From Promethearchaeota archaeon (lineage in GTDB: Archaea > Asgardarchaeota > Lokiarchaeia > Sigyniarchaeales > SOKP01): 64,000 nucleotides of DNA. A program made the translations under genes and the position numbers. Below, piece after piece: positions 56,784-59,144 of this stretch. The stretch's first letter is position 1; each line of letters begins with the position of its first letter. The notes under the pieces are model-generated. The model did not search any database, was not told the DNA's origin, and was given only the letters and a program-made list of their open reading frames with translations. The DNA lies in contig JALGVJ010000018.1 in assembly GCA_029838195.1 (NCBI GenBank), positions 1 to 64,000 on the forward strand, in the 5' to 3' direction.

Positions 56784-59144
56784 TTATATTTTAATCGAGC
56801 GAGCTAGGACATCCTTGAATTTTTCCACATCATTCACCAGCTTATCAGCATCCTCATCCGTAATGTTCTCGTCCTTTTCATAGCGGTTTAATTGAGCCAG
56901 CCAAAATTCAATTCTACCCAAGATAGCTTCATTAGCTCCCATAATTTTTCTTAAACGCACGAAAGTATCATGTAGCTTATTCCTAATGTTCTGAGCTTTC
57001 CATCGCAGCATGCAATAATCGCTTATTTCAGCAAGATTCTGCGTGATCGCCATCACATCAATGGTTTTCTCTCTTTCTTCACTTTTGATTTTTCTGATGA
57101 TATTTATTTCTTCGAACAGAATTTCAATCACTTTAGCGAGGAATCCCGTTAGTTGTCCTGGATTATTACACCATACTCTCACTTCTAATGACTGACTTGC
57201 GGCGGATACATAAATCCTGGTGATTATTCGACCCCCCGTGACTTTTGCCTCCGCACAAAACCATGCTTCAGCTTCATATTCTTTTAGAGCATTACCACCT
57301 TCATAGGAGGTGACCATGTTCGTTTCAAAGCTTTTCAGAGCGCGAATGCCTGCTCGAAATGCCAAACGAGGATCTAAATCAGCAATCAAAAATGCTCGTG
57401 CGTCATTAGGGAGGGTTTGAATGGCGAGTTGACAATCCTCTATCGTGGAAAGGTCGGTACAGACGAGGGGACATTTAATTTGGACTTCTTTTGGACGAAT
57501 GGGAATAGTTCTTTGTTCTCCTTTGGCATTTTTATAAATGACAGTTCCTGAGATGTTAGAGATTCCGCATTCTTTTGGTTCGATGTAGAAGTCGACGCCT
57601 CGAGAATTACCGGCTTCAATCACCGGGATGTTGATTAATGGGTTTTTCAATTTATAGCTAGTGGGAGCATCCAAAATTACTTTTACATTATTAATCGCCA
57701 TATTGCTATGATTTCGCACGACAACTTTAAATCTAACTTGTCCTCCAACAAAATCATAATCTCTGAGTACTTCGATATTTCCTTGATCTTCGTGGGTTAC
57801 AGGTTCTTTTTTAATTCTTGCGGCGTCTGGCGTGGATACGCTATAAGCTACAAATAATTTTTTTTCCATGTCTATGTATCCATCAATTTCATTTCGACTG
57901 ATGAGTAAGGCTAAATTTTCTTCGATGCTTGATTCGGTGACTCCTAATCGATTTGCTAATTCCCTTAGGGGCATAGTTCTATATGCTTTTGCGATTTCTT
58001 TAATTTTTCCTTCCATGTATTTTAGTGTCATGAATTCTCTTCGTTGGGTGAAGATTCCTTTAATAATCCCTTCTTTAATTAAATCATGGAGGCTTTTTCG
58101 GGCGAGTTCGATAGCAATTTTCAAATCTTTAGCTAATCGAGCAAGTTCGAACAACCCTTCTTTATTAGCGAAATTTTGAATTTCCTTGGCAATTTGATTA
58201 GTGGTAATTACCTCATTACCCTTGTCAGCAAAAAAGGCATTAATTTCCTTAGTTCTCATTAAATTGACGCAGAACGACTTAATTCTTTCTTGGGGCAATC
58301 CAAAATATGAGGCTAAATCGGAAATTGCTACTCTTCCTTTCTCTTTTATTTCTTTAACAAGATTTTCTAAGATATACCCTTGAGTGTAATAGAAATTCTT
58401 ATCTAAAGAAAAGGAGCCTTTAATGTGAAATCTGCTGATCAGTTTATATATTACTTGGATGGCTACTTCTTTACTCGTGTCTAACATTTCCATTAAATCC
58501 GAAACCTTCATAAGGCCGCTATCATGAAAGATAGTCAAGATCTTTTCTCTTAATTCAGGAGAAATGTAATAGAACATGTTATAACGCTCGTCAATGATTC
58601 CATAAATTCGCTCTTCTTCCATGAATCGATTAATTATTTTCATAATTTGAGGTAAGGGAATATTAAACACGTCTTTAATAGTAGAGAAATTGGTAATGGG
58701 AGATCTTTTTAACAAATTTATGAAACAATTGGGACAGATTTCATTCCCCGGCATGTATTTTAATTTTTTTCCACACGATTTCGAACTCCTAATTAATCCA
58801 TATCGTTGAGCCTCACGAGCAAGTTGTTCTTTACGGGGAAAAAACAAGCCGGGGGTTTTTAAATAGGAATTCCAACCGCATTTAGGATTGATACATTTTA
58901 AATAATATTGTCCTGAGGTAAGTTTTTCTAACATTAAAAGTGCGCTACACTCCGGACATTTACTTTCTTCAATTACGGAGCATCGAAAATTTTTTTCCGT
59001 AGCGCTGGCTTTTGAATAATATAGATCATGTTTTTTACAATACCATTGCTCTGTACTGACTGAGTGATTGATGCAAAATGAAGATCCACATTTCTCACAG
59101 GTGAAATCAATATTTTGAGAGTCACAGAACGAACATTTTGGCAC
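56784..59144 (-). CDS. multidomain protein: Zn fingers + tandem winged helices (PCI/UFL1-like) + beta-sandwich/platform + helical tail
   Basis: CSFC...CEKC...FCINH; about five WH repeats ending in (I/L)xGxxD-type wings; VRFKVVVRN sandwich. Confidence 0.68.
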   Translation of the reverse strand: MPKCSFCDSQNIDFTCEKCGSSFCINHSVSTEQWYCKKHDLYYSKASATEKNFRCSVIEESKCPECSALLMLEKLTSGQYYLKCINPKCGWNSYLKTPGLFFPRKEQLAREAQRYGLIRSSKSCGKKLKYMPGNEICPNCFINLLKRSPITNFSTIKDVFNIPLPQIMKIINRFMEEERIYGIIDERYNMFYYISPELREKILTIFHDSGLMKVSDLMEMLDTSKEVAIQVIYKLISRFHIKGSFSLDKNFYYTQGYILENLVKEIKEKGRVAISDLASYFGLPQERIKSFCVNLMRTKEINAFFADKGNEVITTNQIAKEIQNFANKEGLFELARLAKDLKIAIELARKSLHDLIKEGIIKGIFTQRREFMTLKYMEGKIKEIAKAYRTMPLRELANRLGVTESSIEENLALLISRNEIDGYIDMEKKLFVAYSVSTPDAARIKKEPVTHEDQGNIEVLRDYDFVGGQVRFKVVVRNHSNMAINNVKVILDAPTSYKLKNPLINIPVIEAGNSRGVDFYIEPKECGISNISGTVIYKNAKGEQRTIPIRPKEVQIKCPLVCTDLSTIEDCQLAIQTLPNDARAFLIADLDPRLAFRAGIRALKSFETNMVTSYEGGNALKEYEAEAWFCAEAKVTGGRIITRIYVSAASQSLEVRVWCNNPGQLTGFLAKVIEILFEEINIIRKIKSEEREKTIDVMAITQNLAEISDYCMLRWKAQNIRNKLHDTFVRLRKIMGANEAILGRIEFWLAQLNRYEKDENITDEDADKLVNDVEKFKDVLARSIKI

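Follow-up and report, generated by a model that had tools for sequence, protein, structure and literature searches.

What is the function of an archaeal protein in which modules from different eukaryotic systems are joined in a single chain? The question is raised by a gene of a Promethearchaeota archaeon (Lokiarchaeia, Sigyniarchaeales), found on the reverse strand at 56784-59144 of the window, which is the whole 64,000 nt stretch we have analyzed (contig JALGVJ010000018.1, assembly GCA_029838195.1). An earlier note, made from the sequence alone, described a fusion of an AN1-like zinc finger, about five winged helices and an adaptin- or BBSome-like appendage.

The gene and its domain organization

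The gene is a single intact ORF, with 786 codons and a stop, which codes for a 786 amino acid protein. It starts with GTG and its frame remains open for just five more codons upstream. A Shine-Dalgarno-like motif, GGAGGT (59151-59156, reverse strand), lies 6 nt before the GTG. Alignments with orthologues start at residues 1-4, which supports this start. All the motifs quoted in the earlier note are present in the translation: CSFC...CEKC...FCINH, IYGIIDERYNMFYYIS, EIKEKGRVAISDLASYFGLP, IDGYIDME and SLEVRVWCNNPGQLTGFL. The fusion is real: More than 250 homologues were found, and the best 120 are about 67-100% identical over their full length, so a chance origin is excluded. The product is a soluble scaffold formed by zinc modules, five winged helices, a linker, an appendage and a bundle of the Vps28 C-terminal type, in this order.

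This architecture is already known. It corresponds to asCOG cog.003822, a fusion of UFL1, zinc, Adaptin-C and Vps28-C regions, which appears in the text on Fig. 5a of a 2021 paper and in the supplement of Makarova et al. (2024, mBio). From the description available there, our protein combines the same four regions in a single chain, belongs to the same phylum and shows no architectural difference: It is another member. The Lokiarchaeum GC14_75 entry of cog.003822 also shares its downstream NikR-like neighbour. The available text of these papers contains no residue-level comparison with DDRGK1 or UFL1. We add three details: a DDRGK1-then-UFL1 colinearity, the loss of the E2-binding helix and the homology of the C-terminal module to a protein linked to SepSecS.

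Three invariant Cys/His clusters are found within residues 1-140. In 25 orthologues C4, C7, C16, C19, C24, H27, C36, H39, C55, C63, C66, C84, C124, C137 and C140 show no substitution, and conservation of C89 reaches at least 90%. The first cluster is a predicted AN1/B-box-like zinc module (residues 4-39; 59028-59135, reverse strand, as all the features below) with eight invariant ligands in the pattern C-x2-C-x8-C-x2-C-x4-C-x2-H-x8-C-x2-H. Its profile matches, zf-AN1 (E 0.0024) and ANCHR-like B-box (E 0.0041), are both under the cut-off. The AN1 consensus is C-x2-C-x9-12-C-x1-2-C-x4-C-x2-H-x5-H-x-C, which ends in H-x-C after x5, while our protein ends in C-x2-H after x8. A Cys/His finger is thus present, as the earlier note proposed, but it does not belong to zf-AN1 (PF01428; 18.4 bits against a cut-off of 27.9, covering positions 1-29 of a 40 position profile), and the AN1 label is only a loose one. 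A second predicted zinc module (residues 55-91; 58872-58982) consists of a C4 zinc ribbon (C63, C66, C84, C89) plus the invariant C55, with a Zn_ribbon_Top1-like match (E 1.8e-4) also under the cut-off. The third cluster (C124, C137, C140; residues 124-140), also a predicted zinc-binding module, is found at 58725-58775.

An AlphaFold model of residues 1-460 (pLDDT 87.3) contains exactly five winged-helix units: 138-193, 196-254, 255-314, 315-373 and 374-433. The likeness of this array to UFL1, DDRGK1 and PCI domains, suggested in the earlier note, is borne out by Pfam profiles, all of them above their cut-offs: DDRGK (PF09756; residues 137-220 against profile 100-182, 52.6 bits, gathering score 27.8), E3_UFM1_ligase (PF09743; residues 224-433 against profile 22-234, 57.2 bits, gathering score 23.2) and PCI (PF01399; 65.5 bits, cut-off 22, in three stretches, the best one at 381-433). 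In Foldseek the N-terminal half has its best match in the human DDRGK1-UFL1 chimera 8b9x (E 3.6e-14, TM 0.66); UFL1 on the 60S subunit comes next. Winged helix 1 (residues 138-195; 58560-58733) is of the DDRGK1 type: When scanned alone, its top Pfam match is DDRGK (21.9 bits). Winged helix 2 (196-254; 58383-58559) spans the fusion junction of 8b9x. Winged helices 3-5 (255-436; 57837-58382) are of the UFL1/PCI type; the fifth one gives 35.9 bits with PCI when scanned alone. A flexible linker follows (about 434-456; 57777-57845), with pLDDT values below 50 at residues 440-460 of the N-terminal model and at residues 1-5 of the C-terminal one.

Profile alignment is colinear with the human proteins: Residues 137-217 correspond to DDRGK1 217-296 and, after a three residue junction, residues 221-352 correspond to UFL1 27-159 (the boundaries of the 8b9x construct are taken from PMC10702826). 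The human scaffold (8b9x, 8c0d, 8qfc, 8ohd) is also a rod of tandem PCI-like winged helices in the same order, but it is built by two proteins which share a composite winged helix. Winged helix 2 occupies the position of this composite unit, yet in a single chain. No CDK5RAP3 partner is known for the archaeal protein. One-to-one orthology of the repeats is not established, since a repeat taken singly does not reveal its register: Winged helices 3 and 4 match the same region of the UFL1 profile and winged helix 2 matches neither family.

Several parts of the human proteins are absent. The membrane anchor and the long exit-binding helix at the N-terminus of DDRGK1 are replaced by the zinc modules (residues 1-136), and the UFL1 C-terminal domain by residues 457-786, which fold as an appendage and a Vps28-C-like bundle. 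The helix which binds UFC1 (residues 1-26 of human UFL1) is also missing: The DDRGK1-like part runs directly into the UFL1-like part, which begins at residue 221, equivalent to human residue 27. A human DDRGK1-UFL1 fusion without residues 1-26 of UFL1 neither binds UFC1 nor supports ufmylation (PMC10702826). Since the array leaves no space for this helix, a role as UFM1 E3 is unlikely and, judging from its sequence, the protein probably does not act as one.

In the second model, which covers residues 446-786 (pLDDT 87.6), a beta-sandwich is followed by an alpha/beta domain and then by a helical bundle. The Ig-like sandwich (residues 457-563; 57456-57776), of the appendage/GAE type, corresponds to strands at 12-118 of this model and gives Z values of 10-13 with many Ig-like domains, including the GAE domain of GGA2 (10.1). 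The adaptin-type, TBP-like platform (564-686; 57087-57455) matches by itself the AP-4 beta platform in VIA-align (2mj7, Z 12.9, rmsd 2.8 over 120 of 141 residues). The best Foldseek matches of the C-terminal half are the COPI, beta2-adaptin and alpha-adaptin appendages and BBS9 (E 7e-10 to 3e-8), and each of these alignments spans both sandwich and platform. The earlier note, which had likened this region to adaptin, COP and BBS appendages, had considered as the contrary outcome that only generic helix-turn-helix and Ig folds, without a platform, would appear. This is not the case: The sandwich is directly followed by the platform, as in appendages, with Z values of 12-12.7 over both lobes (3h1z, 1w80).

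There are also clear differences. The appendages of AP2 alpha and beta2, AP4 beta and COPI beta and gamma are matched with E values of 7e-10 to 1e-6 over about 240 columns and with Z values of 12-13, but sequence identity is about 10% and the lobes are oriented differently (rmsd 12-13 A over both lobes). In those proteins the appendage is attached by a hinge to a HEAT/alpha-solenoid trunk, which is absent here: The 456 N-terminal residues consist of zinc fingers, winged helices and the linker. BBS2, BBS7 and BBS9 have the same order of C-terminal subdomains (GAE, platform and helical C-terminus), and BBS9 matches over 356 columns (E 2.2e-8, Z 12.1). Nevertheless, the archaeal protein has neither beta-propeller nor coiled coil, and its spatial arrangement is different, with an rmsd over 20 A.

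The helical bundle (residues 687-786; 56787-57086) resembles the C-terminal four-helix bundle of the ESCRT-I protein Vps28. The Pfam VPS28 match (PF03997, profile 88-180) is borderline, 25 bits against a cut-off of 24.5. In VIA-align the tail matches the Vps28 C-terminal domain (2j9u_A, rmsd 2.1 over 93 of 94 residues) with a Z of 12.8, a value within the range of unrelated helical bundles (CheA P1 scores 11.8). The N-terminal core of Vps28, which assembles ESCRT-I with Vps23, is absent, and profile positions 1-86 are unmatched.

Conservation and genomic context

Full-length orthologues are found in 63 of the 68 genomes of the host's family and in six of the seven genomes of its sister family, mostly with one match per genome. 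In the rest of the phylum we found only partial matches, the full-length protein was found in just these two families of one order. Identity is 66-72% in most genera of the host's family, and 58% in one of them. Values for Vps22 (58-71%) and HisA (59-61%) are comparable, while those for aCPSF1 (73-89%) are higher. As far as sequences can tell, the protein is strongly constrained, given about 70% identity across genera and the usual single match per genome. HMMs built from orthologues detect no paralogues of the appendage, the tail or the winged-helix array in the host genome. Among the public sequencing runs which contain this stretch, none is listed as RNA.

The neighbouring genes (aCPSF1, a Fer4 membrane protein, HD, PPIase, NikR-like, DsbD_2 and HisA) are syntenic only within the family, this order is lost in the sister family. 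In one genus the NikR-like gene changes strand. Since synteny is limited to close relatives and the NikR-like gene flips, we do not draw any functional link from the neighbourhood.

The host genome codes for Vps22, Vps25, Vps4 and ESCRT-III, and our gene lies away from the ESCRT cluster. Pfam VPS28 matches a single protein of this genome, the one of 786 amino acids. Relatives have a separate canonical Vps28 (about 215-250 amino acids, matching profile 2-188), so our protein is not simply their Vps28. Canonical Vps28 was not found in the host genome (96.6% complete) by blastp with the Vps28 proteins of three relatives, and its syntenic position is occupied by a cytidylate kinase. A complex prediction of the tail (680-786) with the genome's Vps22-like ESCRT-II protein gave a score of 0.00, which speaks neither for nor against binding.

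Possible functions

The reading we prefer, tentatively and at somewhat less than even chances, is an ESCRT-linked adaptor and not an enzyme. The Vps28-C bundle would dock the protein onto ESCRT-II or ESCRT-III, following the ESCRT-adaptor hypothesis published for this fusion by Makarova et al. (2024). The appendage could serve as a hub for partners with short motifs, and the zinc fingers and winged-helix rod might pick a cargo or a partner. The protein would then be an entry point similar to ESCRT-0 or ESCRT-I.

A rather unlikely alternative is a translation-linked scaffold, involved in quality control related to ribosomes or selenoproteins instead of membrane remodelling. Ribosomes or tRNA-handling factors would be the docking sites of its winged-helix rod and platform-bundle module, just as the 60S subunit is for eukaryotic UFL1/DDRGK1. 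In fact, the closest solved relatives of the N-terminal half are UFL1 and DDRGK1, including UFL1 bound to 60S (8qfc, 8ohd), and bacterial SelB, with its SECIS-binding winged-helix array (1lva, E 2.4e-5), represents the fold class that comes next, but tandem winged-helix arrays are generically alike. The human complex grips the ribosome mainly by the exit-binding helix of DDRGK1 and the C-terminal domain of UFL1, which fills the ribosomal tRNA sites, while the winged helices are a connecting scaffold (PMC12047416); both gripping elements are missing in our protein.

This alternative is also favoured by the C-terminal module. Residues 588-777, the later part of the platform plus the bundle, are remotely homologous to NF045535 (Sel_Asgard), a "putative selenocysteine system protein" (NCBIfam E 1.3e-9). 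An hhalign comparison gave 93.9% and E 1.6e-7, with an alignment of our protein family free of Sel_Asgard sequences. The relation is detected by profiles only: BLASTP between the C-terminal half and the Sel_Asgard protein yielded no significant match. Our protein is not a member of NF045535, since it scores 38.2 bits against a cut-off of 132; the true member in the host genome (G000:C3:39314-39895) scores 205.8 bits. NF045535 proteins have about 225 amino acids, stand alone and are encoded beside SepSecS; this is so in 29 of 30 loci, which belong to two or more families. Such a neighbour, instead of ESCRT genes, indicates that the platform-plus-tail module need not be ESCRT-specific. On the other hand, NF045535 is over its cut-off in 111 of 201 Asgard genomes, a wide presence in the phylum, and the full-length protein was detected in two families of one order only, so they do not co-vary.

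A more specific proposal, which we consider distinctly improbable, is that the protein is an unsplit DDRGK1 plus UFL1 scaffold, UFM1-independent and linked to translation or tRNA rather than to ESCRT. The eukaryotic break would have taken place within winged helix 2; this would account for the fact that human DDRGK1 and UFL1 have to complete one another in a single composite winged helix. The module shared with the protein beside SepSecS is what would favour a translation or tRNA role over the published ESCRT role.

There is little chance that the protein is an E3-like scaffold for an Asgard Ufm1-like modifier or for ubiquitin, with zinc fingers replacing the missing UFL1 helix. The homology to UFL1 and DDRGK1, above Pfam cut-offs, agrees with this proposal, but the UFC1-binding helix has no counterpart. 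AN1/B-box-like fingers occur among ubiquitin-system proteins. Pfam Ufm1 and UFC1 have no match in the host genome, weak evidence against an E3 because the UFC1 search matched no control genome. The Ufm1 model did not match any of the 201 Asgard genomes; it is evidently insensitive for Asgard, so we do not take this result as absence. In fact, Ufm1-like proteins have been reported in nine Asgard clades (PMC12962969). Nevertheless, Picchianti et al., who report UFC1 and UFSP2 from eukaryotes only, propose that the Asgard homologues may act independently of UFM1.

A DNA-binding transcription regulator is very improbable: Some automatic annotations (JGI names of homologues) say "Lrp family transcriptional regulator", and there are weak Pfam matches to the DeoR, ArsR and IclR HTH families and a weak fold match to the TFIIIC and RPC62 winged-helix arrays, but all HTH matches are under their cut-offs, those of PCI, UFL1 and DDRGK are above them, the best fold matches are winged helices of protein scaffolds, and an appendage and a Vps28-C bundle, as in coat-adaptor and ESCRT-I proteins, make up half of its length.

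Relevance for Asgard biology

Three modules are joined in one protein: a UFMylation scaffold, a coat-adaptor appendage and an ESCRT-I tail. The proposal of the earlier note, proteostasis-type and coat-type modules in one chain, is thus correct as architecture only, and was already in the literature. As the architecture had been published, the value of our work is its confirmation and three testable details. Models of eukaryogenesis draw on Asgard proteins of this kind, in which modules of different eukaryotic systems are mixed. The unusually high conservation of this protein in Lokiarchaeales points to a function that is probably important for these archaea. Relatives are now available in culture, so that pull-downs are feasible, and the partners recovered would tell whether membrane remodelling, translation or another process was the original setting of the UFL1/DDRGK1 scaffold.

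Gene and domain architecture

The window protein is encoded by a single unbroken ORF of 786 codons (window 56784–59144, minus strand), with GTG as start codon. A GGAGGT sequence lies 6 nt upstream of this GTG, and beyond it only five further open codons remain before the upstream stop. All the motifs quoted in the earlier note are present in the translation. Four eukaryote-type Pfam families exceed their curated cut-offs: PCI (65.5 bits), E3_UFM1_ligase (residues 224–433, 57.2 bits), DDRGK (best stretch residues 137–220, 52.6 bits) and VPS28 (residues 687–776, 25.0 bits against a cut-off of 24.5). 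GAE_BBS1 gives a weak match at residues 467–510.

The two halves of the protein were folded separately, and orthologue alignments were built from DNA loci. In the N-half model (residues 1–460, pLDDT 87.3), small beta/zinc modules extend to about residue 135. They are followed by five regular winged helices (138–193, 196–254, 255–314, 315–373 and 374–433), where the earlier note had given about five. The C-half model (446–786, pLDDT 87.6) contains a beta-sandwich (457–563), an alpha/beta domain or platform (about 564–686) and a helical bundle or tail (about 687–784), again as proposed and in that order.

Fifteen Cys and His residues are invariant in 25 orthologues: C4, C7, C16, C19, C24, H27, C36, H39, C55, C63, C66, C84, C124, C137 and C140; C89 is nearly invariant. 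The N-terminal Cys/His cluster had been described as an AN1-like finger. The cluster itself is real, its likeness to AN1 is only found below threshold (zf-AN1 18.4 bits, cut-off 27.9), as is a match to an ANCHR-like B-box (E 0.0041). The second Cys cluster resembles a Top1-type C4 ribbon.

Appendage lobes, Vps28-like tail and their homologues

The best Foldseek matches of the C-half are the COPI appendage (E 7e-10) and the beta2-adaptin appendage (7.5e-9), with BBS9 (2.2e-8, 356 columns) and the alpha-adaptin appendage (2.7e-8) also found. Each of these four alignments spans both the sandwich and platform lobes. VIA-align, which is independent of Foldseek, gives Z 12.7 for both lobes with AP2 beta and 12.0 with AP2 alpha; the platform alone matches that of AP-4 beta (Z 12.9, rmsd 2.8, 120 of 141 residues). 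The tail matches the C-terminal domain of yeast Vps28 (Z 12.8, rmsd 2.1, 93 of 94 residues), a Z value in a range which unrelated helical bundles also reach. Many generic Ig-like domains likewise match the sandwich taken alone. In the predicted structures, it is the platform match and the two-lobe matches which discriminate in favor of an appendage identity. They support the suggested resemblance to adaptin/COP/BBS appendages, and contradict a combination of generic HTH and Ig folds with no platform.

The window protein is the sole Pfam VPS28 match in its genome. Relatives encode a separate canonical Vps28; neither Pfam nor blastp with the relatives' Vps28 found one in this 96.6% complete genome. 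Vps22, Vps25, Vps4 and ESCRT-III are encoded. A cluster with Vps22-like, Vps25-like, Vps4 and ESCRT-III genes is located on another contig (L076:7929–11759, contig C87), where it adjoins NIP7-like and RsmB/F-like genes. Makarova et al. have proposed that proteins with Vps28-C and appendage domains bind ESCRT-II directly, as analogues of ESCRT-0. According to this model, the Vps28-C-like tail would bind ESCRT-II, and the window protein would be an ESCRT-0 analogue. We infer, tentatively and with slightly less than even confidence, that it acts as such an ESCRT adaptor. We rank this function first on the basis of the four ESCRT components in the genome and of the tail as the best available Vps28-C candidate.

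Residues 589–782 are matched by almost the full length of the NCBIfam model NF045535 ("putative selenocysteine system protein"; E 1.3e-9), with a score far below the cut-off of the model. The true member in this genome, a 226 aa protein (L008:9234–9914; contig C3:39233–39913), is found on a different contig from the window, directly downstream of SepSecS, an adjacency present in 29 of 30 loci, which come from at least two Asgard families. Profile-profile comparison (hhalign) of NF045535 with the C-terminal module gives 93.9% probability (E 1.6e-7, 185 columns). NF045535 is a remote homologue of the platform and Vps28-C-like module. Its range is much wider than that of the complete window protein, so their distributions do not follow each other. 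This places the platform-plus-bundle module outside ESCRT contexts as well.

Relation to UFL1 and DDRGK1

The best Foldseek match of the N-half is 8b9x, an engineered human DDRGK1-UFL1 chimera (E 3.6e-14, TM 0.66 on the target), followed by UFL1 in 60S-bound E3 complexes (E about 1e-11 to 1e-10); bacterial SelB, with its winged-helix array, is far behind (2.4e-5). Together with the Pfam matches above cut-off, this bears out the proposed UFL1/DDRGK1/PCI character of the array. With a profile of the N-half, residues 137–217 align to human DDRGK1 217–296 and residues 221–352 to human UFL1 27–159, unbroken over the chimera junction. The chimera joins DDRGK1 207–305 to UFL1 27–200; it neither binds UFC1 nor supports ufmylation because the UFL1 N-terminal helix is missing (PMC10702826). 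At the place of this E2-binding helix in human UFL1, the window protein has three residues. With a colinear alignment and no room for the helix, it resembles a naturally occurring version of the inactive chimera. Unlike the human proteins, it also lacks the membrane anchor and exit-binding helix of DDRGK1 and the C-terminal domain of UFL1, which grip 60S in the human complex (PMC12047416).

In a single-repeat Pfam scan, winged helix 1 favors the DDRGK model (21.9 bits), but winged helices 3 and 4 both fall on one part of the UFL1 profile: Taken one by one, the repeats are not register-specific. Colinear alignment comes at no cost when tandem repeats share one period, so an origin of eukaryotic DDRGK1 and UFL1 through the splitting of a single chain of this kind is only a suggestion. 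Picchianti et al. place the origin of both proteins in Asgard archaea, possibly with a UFM1-independent function. The Pfam Ufm1 model (PF03671) has no match in 201 Asgard genomes, although Ufm1-like proteins have been reported from nine Asgard clades; absence calls based on this model are thus unreliable in Asgard.

UFL1/DDRGK1 ancestry and the SepSecS-linked homologue would both fit a translation-linked scaffold, which we consider unlikely and rank second. A true Ubl E3 is less probable still and comes third, given the lack of the E2-binding element. Last, and very improbable, is a DNA-binding regulator.

Distribution and significance

In a sample of 301 genomes from the phylum, orthologues spanning the full length are found in 63 of the 68 genomes of the window's family (58–84% identity). 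A sister family of the same order has them in 6 of its 7 genomes, at about 45% identity. Usually there is one match per genome. Outside these families only partial matches were detected, in proteins of other lengths, covering either the winged-helix half or the appendage module (450–690). A library-wide search finds this module in hundreds of proteins of 300–2500 aa, where it is often preceded by zinc ribbons and PCI/UFL1-type winged helices. In the window's own genome no paralogue was detected for the appendage, for the tail or for the winged-helix array. Conservation is similar to that of Vps22 and HisA and lower than that of aCPSF1. The nearest database proteins, from Lokiarchaeia/Promethearchaeota MAGs, carry the annotation "PCI domain-containing protein" or "DUF2042".

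Gene order at this locus is conserved only among close relatives. Among the neighbors are common archaeal housekeeping genes and a small GTPase of Ras/Arf type. The GTPase (Ras/Roc/Arf family, 179 aa, window 63228–63767, plus strand), 4 kb away, belongs to the typical eukaryotic signature proteins of Asgard archaea. Between the start of the gene and an upstream DsbD_2-type membrane protein gene there are about 480 bp of AT-rich, non-coding sequence (59145–59625), a spacer long by the standard of this genome. The gene immediately downstream (56159–56578, minus strand) encodes a NikR-like protein of the ribbon-helix-helix type, whose C-terminal domain is of a nickel-binding kind. The family entry of Makarova et al. 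also has a NikR gene following, given for the orthologue of Lokiarchaeum GC14_75; in one genus the NikR-like gene is on the opposite strand, which makes co-transcription doubtful.

In summary, the observations of the earlier note are confirmed and its interpretation is supported, for an architecture which is already known and published. In its passages on such fusions, the Liu et al. 2021 preprint describes Asgard proteins combining parts of Vps28/Vps23, adaptin/COPI C-terminal domains and E3 UFM1-protein ligase 1, whose function, it states there, could not be inferred. The remaining value of the window protein lies in three testable details: The DDRGK1-then-UFL1 colinearity, the absence of the E2-binding helix, and the homology of its C-terminal module to a SepSecS-adjacent protein.
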